A stretch of 24,000 nucleotides of DNA, taken from contig DATFAS010000077.1 of the NCBI GenBank assembly GCA_035254305.1, positions 1 to 24,000 of the forward strand. Reading direction: 5' to 3'. This DNA comes from Bacillota bacterium (GTDB taxonomy: Bacteria > Bacillota > Bacilli > Aneurinibacillales > RAOX-1). Below are positions 1,579 to 15,298 of this stretch, in pieces. The position numbers were made by a program, and so were the translations under genes. The stretch's first letter is position 1. Each line of letters opens with the position of its first letter. Below the pieces are notes generated by a model. The model had not been told where the DNA came from and ran no database searches. It saw only the letters and a program-made list of their open reading frames with translations.

Positions 1579-1812
1579 TTAATATTTTGCATTAATCCGT
1601 TCACATTCTGGGCAAACCGCAATACGTCCTGATTTCCCACTCTCATCTTCAACCGTATATCCTTTTAGTAATTCTGAGTCACAGTATAAGCATTCCGAAC
1701 GGAAATCCATATCATGATTCGCTTTCCAAGTGTAGGGCTTGAATGTTTGGCCCACACTGATGGGAGAAAAGGAAACTGTCTCTTCACTACCTAATCGATC
1801 TGCGAATTCCAT
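1579..1812 (-). CDS. Hypothetical small zinc-ribbon protein (77 aa)
   Basis: Track ORF. It has two Cys pairs (CLYCDSE ... CPECE) typical of a zinc ribbon, and GGAGGAAGG lies upstream of the ATG. I recognise no family. Confidence 0.55.
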   Translation of the reverse strand: MEFADRLGSEETVSFSPISVGQTFKPYTWKANHDMDFRSECLYCDSELLKGYTVEDESGKSGRIAVCPECERINAKY

Positions 1813-1948: not shown

Positions 1949-3064
1949 CTATTTAAGATTCTCTGGATTTAATACCTCCAGCTCAGGAACAACAAATCGC
2001 CCATCCTTACGAATTAGACGATTATCGAACCAAATTTCTCCTCCACCATATTCAGGTCTTTGGATAAATACAAGGTCCCAATGGATACTTGATACATTCC
2101 CATTAGAAGCCTCGTCATAGCATTGTCCTGGGGTGAAGTGAATGGATCCATCAATTTTTTCGTCAAACAGGATATCTTTCATGGGCTCACGAATGAAGGG
2201 ATTAATCCCAATCGCAAATTCTCCTACATATCTTGCACCCTCATCGGTGTCGAATATCTTATTGATGCGCTCCGTATCATTAGCCGTTGCCTCTATTACT
2301 TTTCCGTTTTCGAAACGAAGTTTTACATTTTCAAATACAAAGCCATTGTATGGGCTTGGTGTATTATACGAAATCACTCCATTTACACTTTCGCGGACTG
2401 GTGCTGTATAGACTTCCCCATCCGGGATATTGAGCTGACCGTCACATTTGATTGCCGGAATCCCTTTGATAGAGAATTTTAAATCTGTTCCTGGTCCCAC
2501 GATTCTAACCTGGTCTGTTTTATTCATTAGTTCAACAAGTCCGTCCATAGCTTTTGACATTTTGCCATAGTCCATAGTGCAAACATCAAAATAGAATTTC
2601 TCAAACGCTTCCGTACTCATTGATGCTAATTGTGCCATGTTCGGATTTGGATAACGTAGAACGACCCACTTTGTCTTTTTAACCCGAATCATCGAATGCA
2701 CGGTATGATTATAATATTTGTTATAAAGCTTTAATTTCTCATCGGGAACATCCGATAACTCATAAATATTTTGCCCACCGCGAACTCCTATGTATGCTTG
2801 CATCATGGTCATCTGATTGGCATCAAACTCAGCCCATGTTTTGATCTGTTCTTCCGTTGCTTCTAGGAGTAGCTCCCGGGTAATTTGGTTATCACGAATA
2901 TTAACAAATGGACGCCCGCCTGCCTTGTGAACCTTTTGAACGAGTGCTCTGACAAGTGCATTCTCAATCCCAAACGCCTCAATTAAAACATTCTCACCAG
3001 ACCCAACCCGAGTGGAATAATTAACAAGTACGTCAGCTAAACGTTCTATACGTGCATCTAACAT
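1949..3064 (-). CDS. ampS: Aminopeptidase, peptidase family M29 (AmpS/PepS type)
   Basis: 371-aa ORF. MLDARIERLADVLVNYSTRV..., the overall length, and ...GEFAIGINP...DEKIDGSIHFTPGQ...HWDLV match thermophilic-metalloprotease (M29) aminopeptidases. A RBS and a terminator are present. Confidence 0.9.
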   Translation of the reverse strand: MLDARIERLADVLVNYSTRVGSGENVLIEAFGIENALVRALVQKVHKAGGRPFVNIRDNQITRELLLEATEEQIKTWAEFDANQMTMMQAYIGVRGGQNIYELSDVPDEKLKLYNKYYNHTVHSMIRVKKTKWVVLRYPNPNMAQLASMSTEAFEKFYFDVCTMDYGKMSKAMDGLVELMNKTDQVRIVGPGTDLKFSIKGIPAIKCDGQLNIPDGEVYTAPVRESVNGVISYNTPSPYNGFVFENVKLRFENGKVIEATANDTERINKIFDTDEGARYVGEFAIGINPFIREPMKDILFDEKIDGSIHFTPGQCYDEASNGNVSSIHWDLVFIQRPEYGGGEIWFDNRLIRKDGRFVVPELEVLNPENLK

Positions 3065-3344
3065 TCTTTTCGCCCCTTTCTTTAAGTTCCACCATAATTA
3101 TACTCTTTTGCCATATAGGACGTAAGTCAAGCATCTTTTCTATTTCTATTTTTTCAATTGTGGAAGATACTAAAATAAGATATAGAATTCCCAAAAATAT
3201 ATAGGATTATCACAAGCCCTTTCCCCCATGCCCAAATTACAAGCAGTCTTTCTCACCTCTACATATATTGTATGATAAGAACCTAACCATTAAATGGAAG
3301 GAAGTTAATCCTAGAAATTTAATTTGGAAGGAGGAAAGACCAGT

Positions 3345-3836
3345 TTGAAGCGCAAACCTATACTGTATAATATGAAGGGTTCTGCTGCTGCTTTCAACCA
3401 TCCTGGGAATTTTTTTGTACCCATTGTTGAGAAAGCAAAGCACAGTGTGATATCAATAGAAACAAAAGATCGCGGAAACAGCCGACAAAGCGATTTCTTA
3501 TTTTCATTCCTTTTTCCTAATAGTGAATCAGTAAGCACAACCAAAAGCTTTGGGACAGGATTTATCATTCATTCCAGCGGCTTTATTTTGACCAGCGAAC
3601 ATGTTGTCCACAATGCACAACAAATCCTAGTCAAACTCTATAGTGGAGAGCAGCGAGTGGCAAAAGTGGTATGGTCTGATGAAAAGAGGGATTTGGCCGT
3701 CCTACAGATTCCTACTCGCAAACCGCTATTCCCCCTCCCCCTTGGTTCTTCCGAAGAAAGTAGGGTTGGGGAATTAGTCATCTCCGTAGGCAATCCGATG
3801 GGTCTTGATCATACTGTAACGATAGAGTGTATATGA
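3345..3836 (+). CDS. 5' segment of a split trypsin-like serine protease gene (S1C/HtrA-like, no PDZ). The authentic coding part is 3345..3821; the last 5 codons (IECI-stop) are read from the inserted element
   Basis: TTG at 3345 lies 10 nt after AGGAGG (3329-3334). Translation contains GTGFIIHSSGFILTSEHVV (catalytic His codon 3600-3602) and KRDLAVLQI (catalytic Asp codon 3690-3692). It ends VGNPMGLDHTVT and then diverges. The catalytic Ser motif is absent from this piece. Confidence 0.85.
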   Translation: MKRKPILYNMKGSAAAFNHPGNFFVPIVEKAKHSVISIETKDRGNSRQSDFLFSFLFPNSESVSTTKSFGTGFIIHSSGFILTSEHVVHNAQQILVKLYSGEQRVAKVVWSDEKRDLAVLQIPTRKPLFPLPLGSSEESRVGELVISVGNPMGLDHTVTIECI

Positions 3837-3882
3837 TCATAGCCAAAAATAAGTGGGGGATTTGTACGAATAAAAATAAACG

Positions 3883-3914
3883 ATAAAAAAACTGAGATAA
3901 TAGGATCTCAGTTT
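3883..3914 (-). terminator. Rho-independent terminator after the HPr gene (end of the mtl-pts transcription unit)
   Basis: Perfect 10-bp stem AAACTGAGAT (3889-3898) / ATCTCAGTTT (3905-3914) with a 6-nt loop. On the minus strand it is followed by TTTTTTT (A-run 3884-3890). Confidence 0.75.
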
Positions 3915-3946
3915 ATGAAAAACCATTCTTATAGATTTTTTACTTT

Positions 3947-4207
3947 CTATTCTACTTCAGTCGTAAGTATTTCTTCTAAAGCAGTAACTGCTTGCTTCTC
4001 ATCAGAACCATTAACAATTAATTTTACTTCTTCACCCTTCTTGATTCCAGCCGCCAGTAATCCCATAATGCTTTTCCCATTTGCTTCTTTCTTATTCGTA
4101 ACTAGTTTGATATCGCTGCTAAAGCTAGTCGCCTTTTGAACGAAAAGTGTAGCAGGACGAGCATGAAGACCATTAGGAAGAGCTATTGTTATGCTTTTTT
4201 CTATCAT
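3947..4207 (-). CDS. ptsH: Phosphocarrier protein HPr (PTS)
   Basis: 86 aa. MIEKSITIALPNGLHARPAT has His15, and GKSIMGL has Ser46. The RBS is AGGAGTGG. Unusually, it lies downstream of ptsI. Confidence 0.9.
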   Translation of the reverse strand: MIEKSITIALPNGLHARPATLFVQKATSFSSDIKLVTNKKEANGKSIMGLLAAGIKKGEEVKLIVNGSDEKQAVTALEEILTTEVE

Positions 4208-4220
4208 TTAAATTCCACTC

Positions 4221-5939
4221 CTATTTTAAAAAATATGTCTTTACGTAAGAAGATACCTCATCAGCCGTATCCATAGATAGGATGTGGTCAATATGAGAAT
4301 CCACATCTCCCTTAGCCATCTGACCAATTTGACTTCTTGCAGCCAATATAGAGGTTGCACTCATACTGAATTCGTCTAGACCTAATCCGATTAATATAGG
4401 GATAGCGATTTCATCACCAGCCATTTCCCCACACATACCTACCCATTTTCCTTCCTGATGCGCAGCCTTAATCACCATTTGTACCAGGCGAAGAATAGCT
4501 GGATTATATGGTTGATACAAATAGGCAACTTGTTCATTCATTCGATCTGCTGCCATGGTGTATTGAACTAAATCATTGGTTCCAATACTGAAGAAATCAA
4601 CTTCCTTACTAAATCGATCAGCCATTACAGCTGTAGCGGGGATCTCCACCATTATTCCAATCTCAAGCTTCTTAGAAACAGCAATTCCTTTCCTGATTAA
4701 TTCCTTTTTTTCCTCTTCAAGGATTTCCTTGGCTTTCCTAAGCTCCCCTAAAGTAGAAATCATAGGGAACATAATCTTGAGATTTCCATAGGCACTCGCC
4801 CTAAGTAATGCCCGCAACTGGATACGGAATAACTCCTGTTGGTCCAAGCATAAACGGATAGCTCGGAAGCCTAGGAAAGGATTAAGTTCTTTCGGCAGCT
4901 CCATGTAAGATAACTGCTTATCTCCACCGATATCTAGTGTACGGATCACCACTGGCTTATCGCCCATTTGCTCTACAACAGATTTATAAGCTTGAAATTG
5001 TTCTTCTTCAGAAGGGAACTCATCTCTTCCCATATATAGGAACTCTGTGCGAAATAGCCCGATTCCTTGTGCTCCGTTTTCAAGAACAGCTACAACATCT
5101 TCCGGTCTTCCAATATTCGCTGCTAATTCAACGCTATGTCCATCCTTTGTAACCGAAGGAGAATTCACCAATTTGGCAAGCTTAGCTTTTCTTAATTCAA
5201 AGTCAGCTTTCTGCTCTTGGTATTCCACGATTTCATCTTCTGTTGGATCGATAAGAATAAGCCCATTAATCCCATCCAAAATAAGCTGAGTGCCCGCTTG
5301 AATTTCTTCTGTTCCACTCTTAGTACCCACAACAGCCGGAATTTCTAACGAACGGGCCATAATAGCTGAATGGGAGGTCCGCCCCCCTATATCAGTAACA
5401 AACCCTTTTACATATTGACGATCTAATTGAGCTGTATCAGATGGGGTTAAATCTTCAGCAATAAGAATAACCTCCTCAGATAAATTGCTCAACGAAGAAT
5501 ATTCTAAACCAAGAAGGTAGTGCAGTACTCGTTTCGAAATATCCCGAATATCTGCTCCACGTTCCTTCATATACTCATTATCCATATTCTCAAACATTTC
5601 AATATACATTTGAGAAACATCATTTAATGCCGACTCTGCATTCACTCTTTCACTTCTCATTTTCTCATTAACCGCATCAAGAAGTTCGGGATCGTCTAGA
5701 ACCAGGAGATGAGCACTAAAAATAGCTGCTTTCTCAGGGCCCATCTCCGCCTGTACTTTATCTCTTATCACGATTAAATCTGCCTTTGACTTCTCAATAG
5801 CTTCTTGCAACCGTTTCATTTCTAAAGAAACATCTTCAACCGTTTTCGTTTCAATCATAAGCTTCGGTGTTTTTAACAGGATTGCCTTCCCTATCGCAAT
5901 TCCTGAAGAAGCTGCAATCCCATACATTTTCTGCGACAA
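4221..5939 (-). CDS. ptsI: Phosphoenolpyruvate-protein phosphotransferase (PTS Enzyme I)
   Basis: 572 aa. It has the [21 protein letters not shown] phosphohistidine motif, and the PEP-utilising C-terminal domain ...GMCGEMAGD.... It has a TTG start 8 nt after GGAGGGG. Confidence 0.95.
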
Positions 5940-5951
5940 GATCTTCCCCTC

Positions 5952-7109
5952 CTATTTCACTTCAAGTTTTCGAAGATCATCGACTTGTTTCATCACAATG
6001 GAAAAGAGAGGGTGATCAACTGGAATTTGCGTATACTTACGGATGGTCTCCTCCATTCCTACCTCTCTAATGCTATTTTGAATTTCCACTGCTTCTGGAT
6101 CGCCAGGATAATCGAATAAAAGAGCACCCGCAATTCCTTTTGCCAGATGTATAGGAGTAATCCCATGTTCAAACGCCTGCATAGCTGGTCCTACCAGACG
6201 ATCATTCGGAGATAGCTTGCGTATGGGAGAACGTCCAACTCTGATCAATTCGTCCGATATAAACGGATTTTGGAACCTATTCATGATTTTATCGGTGTAT
6301 TCTAAATGCTTCTTTTCATCAAATTGATGCTTTGCTTTAAGAAGCTGTCCAGTTTCAAGCAATGTCTGTCTTACGCTATCAACAATGTTTTCATTCTTCA
6401 TAGCTTGATCAATAGTCTTTAGGCCATGTTGGTAACCTAAGTAAGCAGTAACTGCATGCCCTGTATTTACTGTAAACAACTTCCGTTCAATATAAGGGGT
6501 TAAATCCCTGACAAAGGTAATTCCTTCAATCTTAGGAACAGGACCAATAAATTGAGATTCATTAACAACCCACTCATAAAAAGGCTCAACTGTCACAAGT
6601 AATTTATCATCATGATTTTGAAGAGGAACAATTCGATCAACAGCCGCATCTGGAAAGCCAATTTGCGCCATTACCTTAGCTTTAACCGCTTCTTCAATAT
6701 TTTCCAAAACATAGGATTTTAATTGTGTACTTCCACCAACCATATTTTCGCAGGCAATCACATTCAAAGGCTGATCGCTTTTACCGATTCGCAACGAAAT
6801 TCCTTTGGCAATAACCGGTGCAATATACTTAAGAATATTAGGACCGACAGCAGTAGTAACAAGGTCTGCATTAGCAATAACATTGGCTACCGCCTCTTCA
6901 TCTTTCCCAGAAATAGCTCGTACACCTTGGATGGTGAACGTCTCTTGCCCCATATCTGCTAACCTAACTTGATATTCTTTGCGGGAACTGATCTCATTGA
7001 CTAGCTCTTGATTGACATCTACAAAACACACTTCATATCCAGATTGGTATAGTAATTGTCCAATGAACCCTCTTCCGATATTTCCAGCCCCAAAATGAAT
7101 CGCCAGCAT
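5952..7109 (-). CDS. mtlD: Mannitol-1-phosphate 5-dehydrogenase
   Basis: MLAIHFGAGNIGRGFIG NAD-binding N-terminus, about 385 aa. I prefer ATG 7109, which starts 1 nt after the mtlF stop with GAGGG upstream, over the longer track start at 7193, which would overlap mtlF. Confidence 0.9.
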   Translation of the reverse strand: MLAIHFGAGNIGRGFIGQLLYQSGYEVCFVDVNQELVNEISSRKEYQVRLADMGQETFTIQGVRAISGKDEEAVANVIANADLVTTAVGPNILKYIAPVIAKGISLRIGKSDQPLNVIACENMVGGSTQLKSYVLENIEEAVKAKVMAQIGFPDAAVDRIVPLQNHDDKLLVTVEPFYEWVVNESQFIGPVPKIEGITFVRDLTPYIERKLFTVNTGHAVTAYLGYQHGLKTIDQAMKNENIVDSVRQTLLETGQLLKAKHQFDEKKHLEYTDKIMNRFQNPFISDELIRVGRSPIRKLSPNDRLVGPAMQAFEHGITPIHLAKGIAGALLFDYPGDPEAVEIQNSIREVGMEETIRKYTQIPVDHPLFSIVMKQVDDLRKLEVK

Positions 7110-7110
7110 A

Positions 7111-7548
7111 TTACATCCCTCTTTCAAAAATGTCGATAATTTCTGCTTCTGACTGGGCCTTAACAATATCCTCAATATTTTTTTCTTCCGCACAAACCAA
7201 AGCGATATTCGATAACAGCTCTAGATGCTCGTCTCCAACGGCTGCAATTCCAATTAAAAGATAGGCTACATTCCCCTCTCCAAAATCCACACCTTTTGGA
7301 AATTGAACAACGGAAATCCCAGTTGATTGAATCCAGCTTTTAGAATCATTTGTTCCATGAGGAATCGCCACACCGTTGCCTATATAAGTTGTAAGCAATT
7401 CTTCTCTTTCCTGCATCTTCCCAATATATTCTTCTGAGACATGCCCTGCTTCCACTAGTAAGTTCCCAGCTAGTTCAATGGCTTCTCTTTTATTTGAAGC
7501 ATAAGCATTTAGCTTAATTTTTTTTGGTGATAGTACTGTCTGTGTCAT
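7111..7548 (-). CDS. mtlF: PTS mannitol-specific EIIA component
   Basis: MTQTVLSPKKIKLNAY...GNGVAIPHGT (phosphorylatable His). About 145 aa from ATG 7548, with GGGAG 9 nt upstream. The track start at 7614 is an unsupported extension. Confidence 0.9.
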   Translation of the reverse strand: MTQTVLSPKKIKLNAYASNKREAIELAGNLLVEAGHVSEEYIGKMQEREELLTTYIGNGVAIPHGTNDSKSWIQSTGISVVQFPKGVDFGEGNVAYLLIGIAAVGDEHLELLSNIALVCAEEKNIEDIVKAQSEAEIIDIFERGM

Positions 7549-7627
7549 GATGATCTGCTCCCTTTCCTTAAACAAAAGTATATTATCTATTGTTGACATT
7601 ATTAAATATAGCATCTCTTACAATTAA

Positions 7628-7656
7628 AATATAACCTTTAATATTAACATTTTCAA
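7628..7656 (-). promoter_or_regulatory. Candidate sigma-A promoter inside the mtlA-mtlF spacer
   Basis: Read on the minus strand: TTGAAA (7656-7651), a 17-nt spacer, then TATATT (7633-7628). It lies in a very AT-rich spacer, so chance matches are likely. Confidence 0.3.
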
Positions 7657-7723
7657 CAAAACTAAATATAAAACAGTAACAAAACATGTTGCCAAAATTA
7701 AATTTAATATCCCGTGCCCAACC

Positions 7724-7755
7724 AATAAGAAACGCTAGTTTCTAAACTAGCGTTC
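7724..7755 (-). terminator. Terminator-like hairpin immediately after mtlA
   Basis: 11-bp stem AACGCTAGTTT (7731-7741) / AAACTAGCGTT (7745-7755) with a 3-nt loop. It is followed on the minus strand by the weak U-tract TCTTATT. Confidence 0.4.
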
Positions 7756-7761
7756 GCCATA

Positions 7762-9198
7762 TTATCCTAAACGTTTTACCAATTCATCATATTTAGGGCT
7801 ATTTAAGAAATTTTCTACAGAAATATGTTCCACTGATGGGGCCTTAGCCTTTGCTCGTTCTGTAAGAGACTTATGAGTAATAACAATATCTGCATCACTA
7901 GGTATTTCATTTATAGCTGTATTGATTACAGTAATGTCCAAACCGGCATCCTTGACTTTCTTCCGTAGAATAGAAGCTCCCATAGCACTAGACCCCATTC
8001 CTGCATCACAAGAAAAGACGATTTTATTCACCGGAGTAGCCGCACTTGCAACTACTGCTTCCTCTTCCTTATTAGCTACAGATATTGCTGCTTTTCTTCC
8101 TTTAATCGATTCCATTTTTTCTGTTGCCTTCTCTAAATCATCATCTTCCACAGCTTGATTAGTCATCTTAAGTAAAGCTGAAGCAATTGCAAACGATACA
8201 CCCGTAGCAACAACCACCCCTGCTAACACTGGCAATAAACCACCTTTAGGTGCCATAGCCATTAATGCAAAGATACTTCCTGGTGATGGAACTGCAACTA
8301 ATCCTGCGTGAAGCAGTTGGAATGTAAAGGTCCCTGCAACCCCTCCACCAATCGCCGCCAAGATCAACCGAGGATTCATCAATATATAAGGGAAGTAAAT
8401 TTCGTGAATACCACCAAGAAAATGAATGATAATCGCACCTGGAGCAGACTGCTTCGCTGTTCCACGACCAACCAACCAATAGGCTAATAAGATTCCAAGT
8501 CCTGGACCAGGATTTGGTTCTAATAAGAAGAAAATAGATTTTCCTGCTGTTGCAGCATCCTGTAAACCTATAGGGCTTAATACCCCATGATTAATGGCAT
8601 TATTTAAGAAGAGAACCTTTCCTGGCTCAATGAATACATTCGCTAGGGGAAGTAACCCGGCATGTACAATTGCCCCAACCCCAGCAGCCAATAGCTTACT
8701 AACCCCTTCAACAACCGGACCCACTAAACTAAAGGAAAGAAGGGCAAGAATCGCTGCTATAATACCCGCTGAAAAGTTATTGACTAACATTTCAAAGCCA
8801 GATTTAACTTTTCCCTCAATCGATTTATCAAATTGTTTGATCACCCATCCACCTAGCGGACCCATGGCCATTGCGCCTAAAAACATAGGGATATCGGTTC
8901 CAACAATAATACCCATTGTGGCAACAGCCCCTACGACCCCTCCTCTTGTATCATGAACCATCTTCCCGCCTGTATATCCAATCAACAATGGGAGTAAATA
9001 AGTAATCATGGGTCCAACTAGTTTAGCTAGATGCTCATTAGGAATCCAACCAGTCGGAATAAATAATGCCGTAATAAACCCCCAAGCAATAAACGCTCCG
9101 ATATTAGGCATAACCATCCCACTTAAAAATCTACCGAACTTCTGAATACGGACACGTAACCCTACAGATTCTGTGTTTCCTGCTGCAGTACCTTGCAT
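7762..9198 (-). CDS. mtlA: PTS mannitol-specific EIICB component
   Basis: 478 aa. It has the ...[20 protein letters not shown]... EIIC membrane domain, and the C-terminal EIIB motif [20 protein letters not shown] with the phospho-Cys. The RBS is GGAGGAGG. Confidence 0.95.
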
Positions 9199-9260
9199 AA
9201 ATGTGCCTCCTCCAAAATTGAATTTGTTGCCATTTTTTCATTTTATTTTTCCTTGAATCA

Positions 9261-9289
9261 AATATAAACCGTTTTCATTAGGTTATCAA
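9261..9289 (-). promoter_or_regulatory. Candidate sigma-A promoter of mtlA, with an overlapping cre-like site (9264..9277)
   Basis: Read on the minus strand: TTGATA (9289-9284), a 17-nt spacer, then TATATT (9266-9261). TGAAAACGGTTTAT matches the cre consensus TGWAANCGNTNWCA at 12 of 14 positions. Confidence 0.45.
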
Positions 9290-9306
9290 CAGAATGAAAA
9301 CAAGGT

Positions 9307-9329
9307 TTCGTCCATCATGATGTTGACAA
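9307..9329 (-). promoter_or_regulatory. Possible MtlR operator upstream of the mtlA -35
   Basis: TTGTCAACATCATGATGGACGAA on the minus strand loosely resembles the TTGNCACA-N4-TGTGNCAA type operator reported for Bacillus/Geobacillus MtlR. That consensus is recalled from memory. Confidence 0.25.
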
Positions 9330-9367
9330 ATTTTAATTTGTTCAAAGGATTGGAGGCTTGACTTGTC

Positions 9368-11455
9368 CTATTGCATTAAGTCGTAGCAGTATTCATACAG
9401 TTTTTTCGAAAAGTAATCTGCAATGATTTTGGTTTCTTGAGTTTTAAGAGCATCTATCGTTTCATCGTCAATTAACAAGGCACTAATATGACTTAGCACC
9501 TCTAGACCCTCTTTTGTTATCTCCTTCGGACCCAAAAGCATTACAATATTTTCAATCTCAATTTGTTTATTTTCCATGGATCTCATCCATATTGGCTTCA
9601 TTAAATGATGGATTGTAAAAGAAACCTGTGTCATTTGATCATTTCTTCCATGGAATAAAGCCAATCCCGTATTCGGGATTCCAATCCCTGATAATTTTTC
9701 CCTTTCTAATAATTGTTTTACAACTTTCTCTTTATTTTTTATTATTTTCTTTTGGTGCAATAAATTGCATATATGATTTATTATTTCTTCTGTATGTTCA
9801 TAAGGGATACTGATTGTTGGGAAATCAAAGCCTTCAATAATGTCGATGATATGGTGGAAATAACTTTTCATGGATTTCAACTTCTCAAGGGGATTATTTT
9901 GAAGTTTAGGTTTTAATTGCTCAAGGTCTGAACGATGAACCTTAATCCCTCTCATATATAATTTAATTTTTTGGATATCTTCCTTTGTAAGTAAAGGGCT
10001 AACCAATATATATTTATTTGCTTCTATAAGCAATGGAATCGTGGAAATAATCATGTCGTATTCCCTTTTAGGGATGTGATCAATATCGAATAAGGAAACA
10101 TTTCTTATTTCCACTATTTCAGGTATTTCCTTTTCAATCCGAGTTGCCAAAATTTTAGAAGATCCGATCCCACTTGAACAAACAATTAATGCCCTGTAAT
10201 CCCACTCCTTCTCGCTTGTCCTCTCGAGTGCTGCACCAAAATGCATCACTAAGTAACCCGTCTCCTCTTCTGGTACATCTATATTTGAAAACACTACTTT
10301 AACTGCCTCTTGGATCACTCGAAACAAATCTCCATAATTTGCTTTAATCTGATCCAACAGAGGGTTCCTAATTTTCATGTTTCTTTGAATTCTAAATAAG
10401 GCCGGTTCCATATGTGTTAACAAACCGTACAATAAAGATGAATCACGGCTGAACTGGGTATCTAACTTATCTTCACAATAGCGAATAAACTCCATAATTT
10501 TTGCCACAAACTCCGCATTACTAAATTGCAAAGGATCATTCTGGGAATTACGAAGCTTAGCCCCTCGCAGATGCATGGTTATGTATCCGATTTCATCTGC
10601 TGGAATCTCCATTTGAAATATCATTTCTAATCTTTCTAGAATTTGCGCAGCCACTTTGTATTCTTGTGTCCCTTTAAGCTCTTGCAGGTAATTTTCGTCA
10701 AACTTAATTCGTTCTCCCTTTTTTATTCGTTCCATGGCTAGCGCAAGATGTATCACCAAACCGATATAGGCACTATCAGCTAAAGGATATGGCCACTCCT
10801 TCTCAAGATTGCGCAGTGCATTTTCGACCATAATTAGCTTTTCTTTTTCAATAAGTCCGAGTAGACGTTCCGATATCGAATCAATATTTCGTGATGACTT
10901 TCCCTGAATATTCTCTTTGATGAGGCCGATTAATTCTAACTCATTTAAGTGATCTGAAATAAGGTTACTAATTGCTTTTCGTTTGAACGATTCCTTCCCT
11001 TGTAGCTCTACACCATAACCTCGTTTTCGAATCAAGGATAAATCATATTTTTGAATCCAATCCTCCAGATCATCCAAATCATGACTAATCGTTGCTGGTG
11101 TTACCTTAAGATCATAAGCTAAAGAAACTAATTTAATAGGCTCAGTAGAACCAAGTAATAAGCAAAGGATCATTACTTTTCTCTCATCAGCTGTAAAATT
11201 TAACGTAGTTACATTGATCAGAGATAACCGTAGCTCTTCCTTAGCATCAAGGTCCCCTTCCATCAGAATACCGACACCCGCACGTTTAACTAATTTCAGA
11301 TGATATTGCTGGAGGAAAATCTCTATTTCTTCTAATTCTCGATGGATCGTCCTTGAGCTGACTTCAACCTCATCAGCGATTTCCTTAACTGTAATCCCAT
11401 TTTCATGGTCTAATAAAATATCTAAAATCATCCTTTGCCTAGACGAAATATTCAT
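9368..11455 (-). CDS. mtlR: Mannitol operon transcriptional activator MtlR (BglG/PRD-family; HTH, two PRDs, EIIB-like and EIIA-like domains)
   Basis: 695 aa. It has the N-terminal HTH MNISSRQRMILDILLDHENGITVKEIADEVEVSSRTIHRELEE, PRD-type histidine regions (ITMHLRG, LVMHFGA), the EIIB-like segment ALIVCSSGIGSSKILA, and an EIIA(Mtl)-like C-terminus (LALFHGR). Confidence 0.9.
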   Translation of the reverse strand: MNISSRQRMILDILLDHENGITVKEIADEVEVSSRTIHRELEEIEIFLQQYHLKLVKRAGVGILMEGDLDAKEELRLSLINVTTLNFTADERKVMILCLLLGSTEPIKLVSLAYDLKVTPATISHDLDDLEDWIQKYDLSLIRKRGYGVELQGKESFKRKAISNLISDHLNELELIGLIKENIQGKSSRNIDSISERLLGLIEKEKLIMVENALRNLEKEWPYPLADSAYIGLVIHLALAMERIKKGERIKFDENYLQELKGTQEYKVAAQILERLEMIFQMEIPADEIGYITMHLRGAKLRNSQNDPLQFSNAEFVAKIMEFIRYCEDKLDTQFSRDSSLLYGLLTHMEPALFRIQRNMKIRNPLLDQIKANYGDLFRVIQEAVKVVFSNIDVPEEETGYLVMHFGAALERTSEKEWDYRALIVCSSGIGSSKILATRIEKEIPEIVEIRNVSLFDIDHIPKREYDMIISTIPLLIEANKYILVSPLLTKEDIQKIKLYMRGIKVHRSDLEQLKPKLQNNPLEKLKSMKSYFHHIIDIIEGFDFPTISIPYEHTEEIINHICNLLHQKKIIKNKEKVVKQLLEREKLSGIGIPNTGLALFHGRNDQMTQVSFTIHHLMKPIWMRSMENKQIEIENIVMLLGPKEITKEGLEVLSHISALLIDDETIDALKTQETKIIADYFSKKLYEYCYDLMQ

Positions 11456-11573
11456 TTAACTATTACTCCTTATATCCTGATATTCTTTACTGTTATTCTT
11501 ATCGTATATCCCAATTATTAAGTTTACACTAGGAATTCGTCATTCACGAACCTCTAAGGTTAAACCTATCCAT

Positions 11574-11607
11574 GAAAAAACACCACATTCCAAAGAAAAT
11601 GTGGTGT
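11574..11607 (-). terminator. Rho-independent terminator after hom
   Basis: 10-bp stem ACACCACATT (11580-11589) / AATGTGGTGT (11598-11607) with an 8-nt loop. It is followed on the minus strand by TTTTTT (A-run 11575-11580). Confidence 0.75.
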
Positions 11608-11657
11608 TTAAGCCTATCAAAGTCATTTTTCAAATGACCACGAGGTTTAAATCCAAG

Positions 11658-12809
11658 TTATAATCGACAACCAATAATATCTCTAATAATAGGTATTTCT
11701 CCCTTACCCTCTACGGATAATTTGTACTTTTCAACTTCCTCAGCCGGAACAATTTTTCCATTCAACCATTGGTATGAAGATGGCTTACGGTCATAGCTAA
11801 TTTGAATGAATTCCTTTTGATCGTGATCTTGAATACTTGATGATAAGGTATATAAGCTAACTAGATCTTCTAGTATAGCACTAGCTGTTGGTAACGAGCC
11901 TGCCCCTGCTCCAACAAAGGTTAATTCTCCAGCCATATCTCCCGTTACTGCAATGGCATTTAAGACACCATTGATGCTAGCTAGAGGATGATCGTTTGCA
12001 ATTAGTTTAGGGGAAACCTCAAGACGAATGGTATGATGATCCTCCAACTCAACAGAAGCTAGAAGCTTTATCTTATACCCAAGTTCATGGGCTTGTTTCA
12101 GCTCCTCAGCAGTCACCGTTTCTATCCCTACTCGATACACTTTTTCTAACTCTGGTTCAACTCCGAATGCAAGCTTTGTAAGGATGGCTAATTTGTATAA
12201 CGTATCATAGCCACAGATATCTGCTGTCGGATCAGCTTCGGCATATCCTTTAAGCTGTGCTTCTTGAAGAACCTGTTCGAATGATGCCCCCTCATCCAGC
12301 ATCGAGGTTAAAATATAATTGGTTGTGCCATTCACAATTCCGTGTATAGATTGAATATCATTGCATTGCAAATTGTTTCGGAGGGTTTGAATGATGGGAA
12401 TGGCCGCACCTACACTAGCTTCGAAAAAAATCTTAACCCCTTGACGATTCGCTAGCTGTTGCAGCTCTGCCCCATGCTTAGCAATCATCGCTTTATTGGC
12501 AGTAATCACATGACATCCTTGTTCAATGGCCCATTTCACATACTCATAAGCTGGGTAGGCCCCAGCTAAGGATTCAATCATAACATTAGGTCGTTTTGCC
12601 ATTACATCTTTAAAGGAATCAGTCAACAAGGAAGAAATATCAGGAATATCGATATCCCTTCTTTTCATCATCTCTTTCACTAAAATGTTCTGTATCTCTA
12701 CTTTTTTATGTAAACGTTTTTCGATTTTCTGTTGATGGTGATAAAACCTCTGAACTACACCAGACCCTACTGTACCTAATCCTAGAATAGCTATCGATAT
12801 CTTTTCCAT
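11658..12809 (-). CDS. hom: Homoserine dehydrogenase
   Basis: MEKISIAILGLGTVGSGVV NAD-binding N-terminus, ...ANKAMIAKHG...FEASVGAAIPII...GIVNGTTNYILT...AEADPTADI.... ATG 12809 lies 8 nt after AAAGGGGGA; the alternative ATG is 12815. The track start at 12857 would run into the riboswitch terminator. Confidence 0.9.
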   Translation of the reverse strand: MEKISIAILGLGTVGSGVVQRFYHHQQKIEKRLHKKVEIQNILVKEMMKRRDIDIPDISSLLTDSFKDVMAKRPNVMIESLAGAYPAYEYVKWAIEQGCHVITANKAMIAKHGAELQQLANRQGVKIFFEASVGAAIPIIQTLRNNLQCNDIQSIHGIVNGTTNYILTSMLDEGASFEQVLQEAQLKGYAEADPTADICGYDTLYKLAILTKLAFGVEPELEKVYRVGIETVTAEELKQAHELGYKIKLLASVELEDHHTIRLEVSPKLIANDHPLASINGVLNAIAVTGDMAGELTFVGAGAGSLPTASAILEDLVSLYTLSSSIQDHDQKEFIQISYDRKPSSYQWLNGKIVPAEEVEKYKLSVEGKGEIPIIRDIIGCRL

Positions 12810-12837
12810 TTTCATATTCCCCCTTTGTTTATCACAC

Positions 12838-12998
12838 AAAAAAACCCTCTTCAACAAGAAGAAGGTTCTACAGCCCGATCCATTCTTCTTATCTATCAGA
12901 GCACAATTGCTCTGCAGGAATTAGCACCTTACCAATATCAATCGGTCGGTTGCCGGGTTTCATAGGGCCAGTCCCTCCACCACTCTAGATAAGAATTA
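12838..12998 (-). promoter_or_regulatory. SAM-I (S-box) riboswitch with intrinsic terminator, in the hom leader
   Basis: The minus strand reads TTCTTATCTAGAGTGGTGGAGGGACTGGCCCTATGAAACCCGGCAACC...GGTAAGGTGCTAATTCCTGCAGAG...GATAGATAAGAAG. These are the conserved S-box core blocks with P1 CTTATC/GATAAG. The terminator AACCTTCTTC-TTGTT-GAAGAGGGTT plus TTTTTTT follows. Confidence 0.88.
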
Positions 12999-13011
12999 TT
13001 AAATTATGTGT

Positions 13012-13040
13012 ATAATATAGCAAAATCGCATAGATGTCAA
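13012..13040 (-). promoter_or_regulatory. Sigma-A promoter driving the S-box-hom transcript
   Basis: Read on the minus strand: TTGACA (13040-13035), a 17-nt spacer, then TATTAT (13017-13012). It sits about 15 nt upstream of the riboswitch. Confidence 0.7.
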
Positions 13041-13070
13041 AAACAAATATTAAAATAACTTAGAAAACCT

Positions 13071-13108
13071 ACTACAAAAAAATAAAACCTGCATCTTCAT
13101 TTGCAGGT
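13071..13108 (-). terminator. Rho-independent terminator overlapping the stop codon of the 51-aa ORF
   Basis: Stem ACCTGCA (13087-13093) / TGCAGGT (13102-13108) with an 8-nt loop. It is followed on the minus strand by TTTTATTTTTTTT. Confidence 0.65.
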
Positions 13109-13252
13109 AGTCTTCCTAATAAACTGCCTATATAAAGATTCCGTCATATATCTTTTCCAATCATCGAATCCGTCTTTTGTAGCTTGTTTTTCTGCACGTA
13201 ATACACGAATTGTTCCATATTTCCCCTCGATCACCTTCAAGAGCTTACCCAT
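13097..13252 (-). CDS. Uncalled small basic protein (51 aa), divergent from the recombinase gene; candidate recombination directionality factor
   Basis: ATG 13252 lies 8 nt after AGAGAGG. Translation is MGKLLKVIEGKYGTIRVLRAEKQATKDGFDDWKRYMTESLYRQFIRKTTCK (13 K/R against 6 D/E). It has its own terminator. It falls below the ORF-track length cutoff. Confidence 0.4.
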   Translation of the reverse strand: MGKLLKVIEGKYGTIRVLRAEKQATKDGFDDWKRYMTESLYRQFIRKTTCK

Positions 13253-13386
13253 TCCAAACACCTCTCTTGAATTCAGCCTATTCTTGTAAACTGCCTATTA
13301 TGCTTGGGTGGAGTGGGTTATTAGATGGTTATACTTTAATCATTTCTAGCCATATGGTATGTATAAGAACCAATTGGAGGGGACAT

Positions 13387-14988
13387 ATGAAGCTGCCTGA
13401 ATGGGTCGAACAGATTATTTGCTACCTCCGTCGTAGCAGACAAGATATCGAGAAGGAAAGGAAGACCGGAGAAGACACCCTTGCCCAACAGAAGCAAATC
13501 ATGGAGAGAGTTTTGGCTGACTATAACCTCCCCTATCAAGTATTTGAGGAGATTGGAAGCGGAGATAAAATTGAAACAAGACCTGTGTTCTGTGCCGTAT
13601 TAGATCTGCTTGAGGAAGGAAAATACAAGGCTATAGCTGTCCGGGAACTGAGCCGTTTAGGGCGTGGTAGCTATACAGACATGGGCCGGATCTATGACCT
13701 AATCATTCAAAAGGATATATTAATTATCACTCCATACAAAATATACAATCCAACCAATCACGCAGACCTAAGGCAAATCCGTTTTGAGCTTTTTCTTTCT
13801 CGTGAAGAATTTGAAACCATTAAAGAAAGATTAATGAGTGGAAAAACAGCATCTGCTATGCAAGGAAAGTGGTCTTCAGGAGGAACAGCCCCCTTCGGAT
13901 ATAGAGTGAATGACAATACCCAAAAACTCGAGATCTATGAGGATGAAGCAAAAATTGTTCGTATGATCTTTGATTTATATGTTTACGGGCTTGAAGGTAA
14001 AGAAAAAGGATTCAGAGCAATAGCAACCTACTTAACTAGAAATGGGAACCCATCTCCAAGTGGGATGAATAATTGGAATGTCAGCATGGTAAAGAAAATC
14101 CTCATTGAAAAACAAGAACTATATGCTGGGTCATTCTTGTTTGGGACGACCAAAATGGTGAATGGAAAGAAAATAAAAAAACAAAAAGAAGAATGGATCA
14201 TTGTCGGGAATTCCCATCCAGGAATTATTAATGAAGAGATGCTAGAAAAGGTAAAAAAGAAGCATCAATTGCTTTACAAAACACGAACAAAGGTAGATTT
14301 TAATACCTCAGAGCTAGCAGGGCTTCTAATATGTTCGAAATGTGGTAGGAAAATGATTAGGCAAGCTAATTATCGTGAATACATCTCCAAAAAAACAGGA
14401 GAAATCACCATCCACAGCAAAGAAACCCTATGGTGCAATACGATCGGTTGTACTTTCGTCAGCTATCGGGCAGTAGAAGAAGCACTCCTTGAATTTTTGG
14501 CTACAATCGGGCATTTAAAAGATGAAGATTTTCAAGTGTTCATCCAACAAACACAAGAGAAACATAATGTAGATTTACACGGAGAAGAACGAATTCAACT
14601 AGCTACAGAAACAAAGAATCATTTAATTAAAAAACTTGCTTTCATTTATGAAAAATTTGAGGAAGGAATCTATTCTAAGGAAGAATTCATTACAAGACGC
14701 GAAGGCATCAACCAGAAAATTGGGGAATTAGAAAAGACCATTCGGCTTCTTCTAAATGTAGAATCACCAGCTCGCAAGCTGCAAGTGGATATAAACCAAA
14801 TGAAACAAATCCTACTGTCAGTATACAGAACATATCGAACGATTGAGAATACAGAAGAAAAAAATCGAATTCTTCATGGCATTATTGACCACGCCGTATT
14901 AGAACTGACTGAAAAAGTAAGAGGGAATAAACCCAGCAGATTTAACCTTGATGTTTATTTTCGCATGGAAGATTTCCTCATTCTATGA
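13387..14988 (+). CDS. Large serine recombinase (resolvase catalytic domain, recombinase domain, zinc ribbon and coiled-coil)
   Basis: ATG 13387 follows GGAGGGG. The N-terminus has ICYLRRSRQDIEKERKTGEDTL with the catalytic Ser codon at 13435-13437. It also has ...RELSRLGRGS..., the recombinase domain GGTAPFGYRV, the zinc ribbon CSKCGRKM...CNTIGC, and a coiled-coil-like C-terminal region. It is 533 aa with no disruptions. From memory, the N-terminal motif resembles SprA-type recombinases of SPbeta-like elements. Confidence 0.95.
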   Translation: MKLPEWVEQIICYLRRSRQDIEKERKTGEDTLAQQKQIMERVLADYNLPYQVFEEIGSGDKIETRPVFCAVLDLLEEGKYKAIAVRELSRLGRGSYTDMGRIYDLIIQKDILIITPYKIYNPTNHADLRQIRFELFLSREEFETIKERLMSGKTASAMQGKWSSGGTAPFGYRVNDNTQKLEIYEDEAKIVRMIFDLYVYGLEGKEKGFRAIATYLTRNGNPSPSGMNNWNVSMVKKILIEKQELYAGSFLFGTTKMVNGKKIKKQKEEWIIVGNSHPGIINEEMLEKVKKKHQLLYKTRTKVDFNTSELAGLLICSKCGRKMIRQANYREYISKKTGEITIHSKETLWCNTIGCTFVSYRAVEEALLEFLATIGHLKDEDFQVFIQQTQEKHNVDLHGEERIQLATETKNHLIKKLAFIYEKFEEGIYSKEEFITRREGINQKIGELEKTIRLLLNVESPARKLQVDINQMKQILLSVYRTYRTIENTEEKNRILHGIIDHAVLELTEKVRGNKPSRFNLDVYFRMEDFLIL

Positions 14989-15024
14989 GATCTTCTTTTT
15001 GGCAACTATCTGCTACATCCTTTT

Positions 15025-15261
15025 ACGAAAGGAATCATCAGTGCAAAAAACCGTCCCGTGAAGATCTCCGGTAAATTATATGAGGATATCATTCAAACAG
15101 ATTGTGCAATTAACCCTGGAAATAGTGGGGGGCCATTAATTAATCTGAACGGTGAAGTTATTGGTATGAATGCCTTTATTATTAAGAACAATCAAGGGCT
15201 GGGTTTTGCTGTAGGGATCGACAGTATTAAGGCGCAAATTGGCAGATACATTCATGAATAG
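15025..15261 (+). CDS. 3' segment of the split S1C serine protease gene (carries the catalytic Ser)
   Basis: The frame, open from the junction, reads [51 protein letters not shown]...[12 protein letters not shown]. The Ser codon is at 15124-15126. No RBS or plausible own start lies at the junction. The track's GTG at 15058 is internal. Confidence 0.85.
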
Positions 15262-15290
15262 AAGGTCAATGATTCCATTGGCCTTTTCTT
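15262..15290 (+). terminator. Terminator of the protease gene
   Basis: Stem AAGGTCAATG (15262-15271) / CATTGGCCTT (15276-15285) with one mismatch and a 4-nt loop, followed by TTTTCTT. It starts directly after the TAG stop at 15259-15261. Confidence 0.6.
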
Positions 15291-15298
15291 ATCAGCAT

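Follow-up and report, generated by a model that had tools for sequence, protein, structure and literature searches.

The window, a 24,000-nucleotide stretch of DNA from a Bacillota bacterium (GenBank assembly GCA_035254305.1, contig DATFAS010000077.1, positions 1 to 24,000 of the forward strand), contains a gene for a serine protease of the S1C (HtrA) type that is split in frame by an 11.2-kb element. The element carries a large serine recombinase of the SprA family and a metabolic cargo. With moderate confidence, we read it as a non-phage gene-intervening element of the kind represented by skin, SPβ and gin, which would be excised in the sporulating mother cell. Coordinates of all features are collected in Table 1; comparison loci are designated by L numbers.

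A protease gene split within one codon

The left fragment of the gene runs to VGNPMGLDHTVT, ending at the ACG triplet 3819-3821, and is followed by four element-encoded codons and a stop (3834-3836). The 5' product of the integrated gene is a stump of 163 aa devoid of the nucleophile serine. The right fragment resumes in the same frame at ACG 15025-15027: the split codon is threonine 159 on either side. Catalytic residues His (CAT 3600-3602) and Asp (GAT 3690-3692) are placed on the left fragment and Ser (AGT 15124-15126), within GNSGGP, on the right one, so that the S1C order His-Asp-Ser is complete only once the halves are joined. A hairpin is located 3' of the right fragment, at about 15263-15291.

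The joined protein, 236 aa long, gives a single uninterrupted match to Trypsin_2 (positions 1-144 of 144, E = 7.7e-35), and its alignment to a DegP-like structure is continuous across the junction. Do/HtrA models match it in their protease half (TIGR02037, positions 3-224), with scores under the equivalog cut-offs. A domain search detected no PDZ domain in the joined protein or in its intact orthologues of 236-238 aa; it is read as a cytoplasmic protease of a PDZ-less S1C subfamily.

An earlier note on this DNA had proposed that a recombinase-bounded element splits the gene and that excision would restore one open reading frame (ORF) with the full triad. The split is confirmed, with every coordinate correct to the base, and the restored ORF is borne out by the colinearity of the halves with S1C proteases and by the complete Trypsin_2 match. 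Both halves were described as undegraded and indeed read open and in frame.

Attachment sites and borders of the element

The 11,206-bp element is missing from syntenic empty sites, and its GC content (about 0.39) equals that of the flanks. Its two attachment (att) sites, attL and attR, have only ACGA in common, within which the crossover dinucleotide is probably AC; attL holds the inverted repeat TGATCATA/TATGATCA. Brought together, the element arms rebuild an attP of 28 + AC + 28 bp, TTTTGGCAACTATCTGCTACATCCTTTT-AC-GATAGAGTGTATATGATCATAGCCAAAA. The best dyad axis of this 58-bp imperfect palindrome falls exactly on AC, with 18 of its 29 pairs complementary, a score reached by 2 of 2000 shuffles. 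attL and attR are directly oriented; therefore, recombination between them deletes the element and does not invert it. The junctions predicted after excision are GGTCTTGATCATACTGTAACGAAAGGAATCATCAGTGC for attB in the chromosome and CTGCTACATCCTTTTACGATAGAGTGTATATGATCATAGCC for attP in the excised circle.

A homologous, near-perfect 58-bp palindrome is found uninterrupted in L050 (6440-6500), directly 3' of a recombinase gene whose product is 51% identical to that of the window. It reads CTTTGGGTGTTATGATGTCACTTCCGTC-AC-GTTGATATTGACATGATAACACCCAAAA, has the form TTTGGG...-AC-...CCCAAA and is also centred on AC, with 21 of 29 pairs complementary. This sequence looks like an uninterrupted attP, i.e. 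an element in the free, unintegrated state. As such, it supports the borders of the window element as well as a non-palindromic AC crossover, which would give directionality. The outer motif of the P arm, TTTTGG, is kept in L042, L048 and L049 and shortened to TTTTG in L051.

A recombinase of the SprA family and a conserved 51-aa ORF

The recombinase of 533 aa was claimed to be undisrupted, which holds: from ATG 13387 it comprises the Resolvase and Recombinase domains and the active-site motifs YLRRSRQD and SRLGR, both of which align with SprA. Zn_ribbon_recom (PF13408) reaches 21 bits, under its cut-off of 25.3; the CxxC...C region is nevertheless included in the SprA alignment. The best relative of solved structure is SprA/YokA of SPβ (PDB 9dxh, E = 7.6e-113, residues 8-527 on 13-532), and the closest phage enzymes are SPβ-like integrases, 38-41% identical over the full length. 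The XisF model of NCBIfam matches weakly (E = 6e-21, under its cut-off). Sequence comparison assigns the enzyme to the SprA/YokA clade of large serine recombinases. The likeness to skin and SPβ, put forward in the earlier note as one of architecture, is thereby exceeded: with SPβ SprA it is a full-length homology. Its gene occupies the right end of the element and stops 36 nt short of the crossover.

Divergent from the recombinase gene is an ORF of 51 codons, already picked out in the earlier note, which proves to be real and conserved. A 57% identical ORF has the equivalent position in L048, and a database protein of 55 aa (P0362) is 51% identical; a search of 1.84 billion representatives gave only two real relatives. 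It is a candidate recombination directionality factor. The idea that it is a homologue of SprB was dropped, as PDB, phage, Pfam and PHROG searches returned no match. A single-sequence AlphaFold model predicts one long helix (pLDDT 77) and is uninformative. Recombinase scans of metagenome and viral contigs for further copies of the element gave nothing useful.

Intact orthologues at syntenic loci

Orthologues were scanned in one genome per species. Ammoniphilus-type genomes contain intact genes for proteins of 236-238 aa, 79-84% identical to the joined protein, at syntenic loci: these are the uninterrupted empty sites that the earlier note called for. Weaker orthologues occur in Aneurinibacillus, Brevibacillus, Paenibacillus, Cohnella and their relatives, and the scan found the subfamily only in spore-forming Bacillales. 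The rebuilt DNA junction, GATCATACTGTAACG followed by AAAGGAATCATCAGTGC, aligns without a gap with the intact genes.

The nearest intact locus (L062/L063, 84% identity) is syntenic with the window on both flanks, in the shared order orf77, M29 peptidase, protease, HxlR, Nudix, lutCBA, moaB, moaC, ykuD and ftsK. None of the genes of the insert is present in the syntenic empty-site loci. As intact orthologues exist there without them, the split is not due to chance. The flanks of the element are 77-90% identical to those of Ammoniphilus genomes, and Ammoniphilus is, from the literature and taxonomy consulted, an endospore-forming genus of the Paenibacillaceae. The organism of the window is most simply taken as an Ammoniphilus-like endospore former of that family, living in soil, and it would itself sporulate.

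The same gene is interrupted at three sites

Outside the window, the gene is split at the same position (site 1) in four other assemblies. Recombinases of L042, L048 and L049 (64-67% identical to that of the window) and of L051-53 (48%) directly precede a protease 3' fragment, which starts at the same codon as in the window and follows a similar P arm. The genes upstream of the recombinase in L042 and L048 differ from those of the window.

Site 2, at VGNP, lies about 30 bp upstream of site 1 and is the place of the split in a cultivable isolate, Ammoniphilus resinae DSM 24738. The halves join into a perfect ORF of 237 codons. The recombinase (529 aa, 27% identical; L012:10474-12063, minus strand) is encoded at the opposite end of the element. 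The split spans L012:10430-17965 and L016:1-10008, with SPβ-like tail genes (YOMG_N, Prophage_tail) on the L012 side and FtsK/SpoIIIE and Replic_Relax genes on the L016 side; because the two sides carry different gene sets, the insert may be composite.

At site 3, a third recombinase interrupts the gene beside the catalytic His (L054:1-1681, from Logan ERR12143017): the recombinase gene ends at 1202 and the protease gene resumes with ...LTSEH at that residue. L054 is the closest relative of the window allele, with 92% identity and the same downstream synteny.

In two other lineages, sister recombinases of the window enzyme adjoin a truncated prkA gene (AAA_PrkA, 289-296 aa). PrkA is a sporulation protein of Bacillus subtilis. 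A literature search found no published report of prkA-intervening elements. Altogether, three recombinase lineages have entered a single gene at three sites and left all its fragments intact, and sister enzymes are found in prkA; this pattern matches the one reported for sporulation genes.

Some observations concern these loci in their own right. The prkA element of L056 has Tcp-type conjugation genes and that of L055 helix-turn-helix (HTH) genes and a tyrosine-integrase gene. P0123, a database protein of 668 aa with an EAL-domain match (L042:1597-3603), is annotated too far upstream: the true recombinase begins at about 1999 and is preceded by 130 residues of unrelated sequence. The host of L051, which carries the most divergent site-1 element, has an encapsulin locus (an IMEF/Flp cargo protein and a Linocin_M18 shell, L051:3725-5204) just downstream of its split protease gene.

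Constraint on split alleles

All protease fragments seen are open, with neither frameshift nor stop. Between Ammoniphilus-type alleles the nonsynonymous divergence (dN) is 0.065-0.17 and synonymous sites are saturated in every pair, for which reason dN/dS, its ratio to synonymous divergence, can be stated only as much less than 1. Root-to-tip distances of split alleles (0.185-0.208) fall within the range of intact ones (0.171-0.237). These branch lengths argue against decay.

Promoter-like boxes of the protease and recombinase genes

The protease gene is preceded by a σE/σK-type CATA -10 box plus TAAGAACC. In 13 of 16 orthologues, which come from several genera, a box of the form CATA[CTA][AG]NT precedes the start codon by 30-120 nt, against a background of 7% of 150-nt windows. 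The promoter block is conserved in L062 and in A. resinae. Aneurinibacillus-type promoters possess in addition AC 16 nt upstream of the -10 box, as in σK promoters. Two pointers to a possible expression of the protease in the mother cell are the conservation of this -10 box and the confinement of the subfamily to spore-forming Bacillales.

A near copy of the protease box lies before the recombinase gene, with ATATATTGACATAAGAACC as its equivalent in L048. The composite pattern of the box occurs six times in about 2 Mb (the window and the loci), each time before a protease or a site-1 recombinase gene; that the target and its recombinase should have such a box in common is suggestive. CATAATA precedes the 51-aa ORF in both loci for which upstream sequence is present. 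A scan of the region for σ70-type promoters and terminators gave counts no higher than in shuffled sequence.

The segment CATATGGTATG (13351-13364) is nearly palindromic, so that each strand has a CATAnnnTA box: one faces the recombinase gene and the other, CATACCATA, faces the 51-aa ORF.

Proposed excision in the mother cell and its alternatives

The element would have integrated by recombination of attP with attB through its own SprA-family recombinase, with the crossover at AC of threonine codon 159. In a sporulating cell, the protease gene would be expressed in the mother cell from its σE/σK-type promoter and the recombinase gene transcribed from the sequence that nearly duplicates this promoter. 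With the 51-aa protein as its directionality factor, the recombinase would recombine attL with attR, yielding a circle that carries the mannitol phosphotransferase system (PTS) and hom, and an intact 236-codon protease gene. As the mother cell is terminal, the spore genome would retain the element, and selection on sporulation would preserve both the gene halves and the recombination unit.

Several points weigh against this proposal. To our knowledge, the protease subfamily has no characterised role in sporulation and no orthologue in B. subtilis. The -35 region of the Ammoniphilus group matches neither the σE nor the σK consensus, leaving the -10 box to carry the promoter assignment, and the composite pattern was composed after inspection of the sequences. 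In Pfam, PHROGs, PDB and phage records, the 51-aa ORF resembles neither SprB nor any known directionality factor. Among 5.8 billion protein clusters there is no rejoined allele of the window strain, the best full-length match being 84% identical. Lastly, the closest relative, L054, has an intact and empty site 1, which means that the element has not become fixed in the lineage and that some insertions may be recent. Recent insertion is also compatible with the branch lengths, which weakens the argument from intact fragments.

The main rival reading is an ordinary integrative genomic island that has inactivated a dispensable protease paralogue, is rarely excised and then for transfer, not development, and leaves the halves intact only as it arrived recently. 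Its cargo would be a typical fitness-island module, the empty site of L054 would reflect ongoing gain and loss, branch lengths and the missing rejoined allele would be in order, and the conserved coding motif DHTVTKGIIS would be a dependable attB for any element. It does not, however, account for the split alleles, of which there are at least six, independent of one another and spread over three sites, none of them with a frameshift or stop. Site-1 recombinases, moreover, have diverged to 48-70% identity yet use the same codon, which argues for a long association and not for one recent event. The recombinase also belongs to the SprA clade and has sister enzymes in prkA, it has a promoter-like box in common with the target gene, and the element is without transfer machinery of its own. 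We regard the island as a rather unlikely explanation. Excision might instead constitute a reversible vegetative switch of the active-lysogeny type, in which a cue other than sporulation (DNA damage, carbon source or stationary phase) activates the protease in a subpopulation. There are precedents: SPβ is excised upon SOS induction as well as in sporulation (PMC5499854) and yin is excised at all time points (PMC10747680). The sugar-responsive regulator MtlR among the cargo would suit such a cue. The element has, on the other hand, no repressor, SOS box or phage lytic module; the sole regulatory signal found before its recombinase gene is the CATA/TAAGAACC box that it has in common with the target gene; and the loss of a non-replicating circle with ptsHI and hom would be costly to dividing cells. 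This makes the switch very improbable. We give practically no credence to a chimeric contig joining unrelated DNA within the protease gene: the source is a metagenome-assembled contig, but its junctions have the structure of a serine-recombinase attL and attR and rebuild a palindromic attP, the same attR junction is present in four independent assemblies, the gene is split in the isolate A. resinae DSM 24738 as well, and GC content is uniform.

Comparison with known intervening elements

The sporulation gene-intervening elements described so far include skin, SPβ, vfbin, vrin, gin and yin. Published systems share a target expressed in the mother cell whose halves are in frame, a serine recombinase adjoining an att site, a very small orphan directionality factor, and the use of different sites of one gene by different units (PMC4191935, PMC5499854, PMC5595907, PMC6957869, PMC10747680). 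The closest is SPβ in spsM of B. subtilis, a gene reconstituted by SprA during sporulation (PMC4191935, PMC5499854). Like SPβ, the window element interrupts a coding region with its halves in frame, encodes a full-length homologue of SprA at its end beside the att site, and has an attP symmetric around a 2-bp crossover. SPβ also encodes the small SprB (58 aa) under a σE/K promoter (PMC5499854), to be compared with the 51-aa ORF and its upstream CATAATA, although the two proteins are not similar. In contrast, SPβ is an active phage of 134 kb, whereas the window element of 11.2 kb has no phage gene. The att core of SPβ is 16 bp long (ACAGATAA/AGCTGTAT, crossover AA) and that of the window ACGA, with AC the probable crossover. 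sprA is constitutive, while the recombinase gene of the window itself has a target-like box.

The gin element in gerE of Bacillus cereus ATCC 10987 is, like that of the window, not a prophage; it encodes the large serine recombinase GirC and the 42-aa GirX, both transcribed during sporulation (PMC5595907). The pairing of a large serine recombinase with a tiny orphan directionality factor would recur in the window, where the latter is a candidate. gin differs by its 28.6 kb, its three recombinase genes and its transcription factor target, where the window element carries one coherent metabolic module; its excision is demonstrated experimentally, that of the window element deduced. In the mother cell, a serine recombinase (SpoIVCA in B. 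subtilis, Skr in Clostridioides difficile) excises elements of the skin type and so restores sigK; different recombination units occupy different sites of this gene in different species (PMC6957869), comparable with the three sites in the protease gene. Contrary to the window element, skin is a defective prophage, its target is a sigma factor essential for sporulation, and SpoIVCA is a more distant recombinase.

yin interrupts yabG, a sporulation protease gene of Clostridium botulinum (PMC10747680). Here too a protease gene is the target, the serine recombinase gene is beside the junction and the directionality factor is a prediction (PMC10747680). YabG is, however, a cysteine protease of another fold, and yin is prophage-like, in a clostridial host and known from one strain only. 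The fdxN element of Anabaena is excised from its gene by the large serine recombinase XisF in a terminally differentiated cell, the heterocyst; the host is a cyanobacterium with another developmental programme and the similarity is at the family level only.

The earlier note had suggested that a PDZ-less S1C target and a purely metabolic cargo were undescribed. Such novelty has to be put more cautiously: non-phage elements (gin, PMC5595907) and a protease target (yin in yabG, PMC10747680) were known, but our literature search found no published report of an S1C target or of an all-metabolic cargo. New are the PDZ-less S1C target, which has no known role in sporulation, the wholly metabolic cargo, host-like in composition, that includes an enzyme I (EI) and an HPr, and the signs that the recombinase gene has the box of its target.

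Implications

Intervening elements may be regarded as natural markers of genes that no cell but the terminal mother cell requires. Having been split by three recombinase lineages at three sites, the protease gene is on these grounds a strong candidate for encoding a new sporulation protein of the group formed by Ammoniphilus, Aneurinibacillus, Brevibacillus and Paenibacillus; it has no counterpart in B. subtilis. To judge by the sister enzymes in prkA, more sporulation genes are interrupted than are listed so far. The hits by three independent recombinase lineages are also the reason for a bolder claim: that the protease is an unrecognised mother-cell sporulation protein and the SprA-type unit has been fully domesticated, having shed its phage genes, acquired a promoter copied from its target and taken core metabolism as cargo. 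We hold this combination to be decidedly unlikely. If true, a single recombination in the mother cell would switch the protease on and at the same moment take a module for carbon uptake and amino acids out of the chromosome. A SprA-type recombination unit can, as the element shows, persist without phage or conjugation genes while carrying a complete mannitol PTS and a riboswitch-controlled hom. For genome engineering, practical interest lies in a new serine integrase whose attP and attB sites are defined, and in the 51-aa protein as its candidate directionality factor.

Table 1 Positions of the features discussed, in the window unless a locus is named
Feature	Position	Strand	Remarks
Protease promoter-like box CATATATTGTATGATAAGAACC	3262-3283	+	σE/σK-type CATA -10 box plus TAAGAACC
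Protease ribosome-binding site GGAAGGAGG	3326-3334	+	upstream of TTG 3345
S1C protease 5' fragment	3345-3821	+	codons 1-159; TTG start 3345, conserved in orthologues
attL	3791-3848	+	host B arm; probable crossover AC 3819-3820; element P' arm GATAGAGTGTATATGATCATAGCCAAAA 3821-3848
Intervening element	3821-15026		11,206 bp
ptsH (HPr)	3947-4207	-	PF00381, E = 4e-30; followed by terminator-like hairpin 3914-3889
ptsI (PTS EI)	4221-5939	-	PEP-utilizers domains; nearest non-self relative 72% identical
mtlD (mannitol-1-phosphate 5-dehydrogenase)	5952-7109	-	Mannitol_dh and Mannitol_dh_C; ORF 5952-7193
mtlF (mannitol EIIA)	7111-7614	-	PTS_EIIA_2, E = 2e-34; probable start ATG 7548
mtlA (mannitol EIICB)	7762-9198	-	PTS_EIIC and PTS_IIB
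mtlR-type PRD/EIIA transcriptional activator	9368-11455	-	HTH_11, Mga, two PRD, PTS_EIIA_2
hom (homoserine dehydrogenase)	11658-12815	-	PF00742, E = 1e-63; NF004976, 400 bits
S-adenosylmethionine (SAM, S-box) riboswitch, leader of hom	12886-12995	-	RF00162, 97.6 bits (gathering score 44.4)
Conserved 51-aa ORF, divergent from recombinase gene	13097-13252	-	between hom and recombinase gene; terminator-like hairpin 13108-13087
Recombinase promoter-like box CATATGGTATGTATAAGAACC	13351-13371	+	near copy of CATATATTGTATGATAAGAACC; 16 nt before recombinase ribosome-binding site
Large serine recombinase, SprA family	13387-14988	+	533 aa; Resolvase PF00239, E = 3e-14; Recombinase PF07508, E = 6e-18
attR	14997-15054	+	element P arm TTTTGGCAACTATCTGCTACATCCTTTT 14997-15024; probable crossover AC 15025-15026; host B' arm
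S1C protease 3' fragment	15025-15261	+	codons 159-236 and stop; same frame from ACG 15025-15027; stop 15259-15261
prkA-adjoining recombinases	L055:10001-12490; L056:10001-12470; L057:2664-5133		47-48% identical to window recombinase

Cargo of the element

Metabolism, MtlR-type regulation and the recombinase account for all ORFs of the element but the 51-aa one. A domain search of every ORF detected no phage structural, lysis, replication or conjugation gene, and of four element proteins searched against PHROGs the integrase alone matched (phrog_95). The minus-strand genes follow in the order hom, mtlR, mtlA, mtlF, mtlD, ptsI, ptsH. From mtlF through ptsH they are linked by gaps of 12-13 nt or by overlapping stop and start codons; the probable start of mtlD, ATG 7109, overlaps the stop of mtlF. 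A terminator-like hairpin (12869-12841) stands between the SAM riboswitch and hom.

A foreign origin of the cargo was first read from the lack of any Ammoniphilus-named protein among the top 120 PtsI matches, a reading no longer favoured. The best PtsI match (72%) comes from the same metagenome-assembled genome as the empty-site locus L001, flanking genes show comparable identities (56-90%), and the GC content does not vary; the cargo may thus be of foreign or of host origin.

The module is a self-contained mannitol PTS that includes its own general components, EI and HPr. The type species of Ammoniphilus is an obligate oxalotroph. The operon is unusual in its order: downstream of mtlA, mtlF and mtlD, ptsI comes before ptsH (3947-9198, minus strand), the usual order being ptsH-ptsI. 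Hom matches positions 2-323 only of a 430-position model, so that its C-terminal regulatory region differs.

Neighbouring genes

Upstream of the protease gene, orf77 (1579-1812, minus strand) encodes 77 aa with CxxD...CPxC motifs and no family match. ORFs 55-70% identical to it accompany the protease gene in A. resinae, Aneurinibacillus and L010, where they lie on its upstream side in divergent orientation. The intervening M29 aminopeptidase gene is inverted in the window (1949-3064) with respect to the two closest relatives (L062:8643-9758 and L012:8730-9845). A search for inverted repeats flanking it gave weak pairs only, none of them clear. orf77 and the protease promoter block keep their positions despite this inversion.

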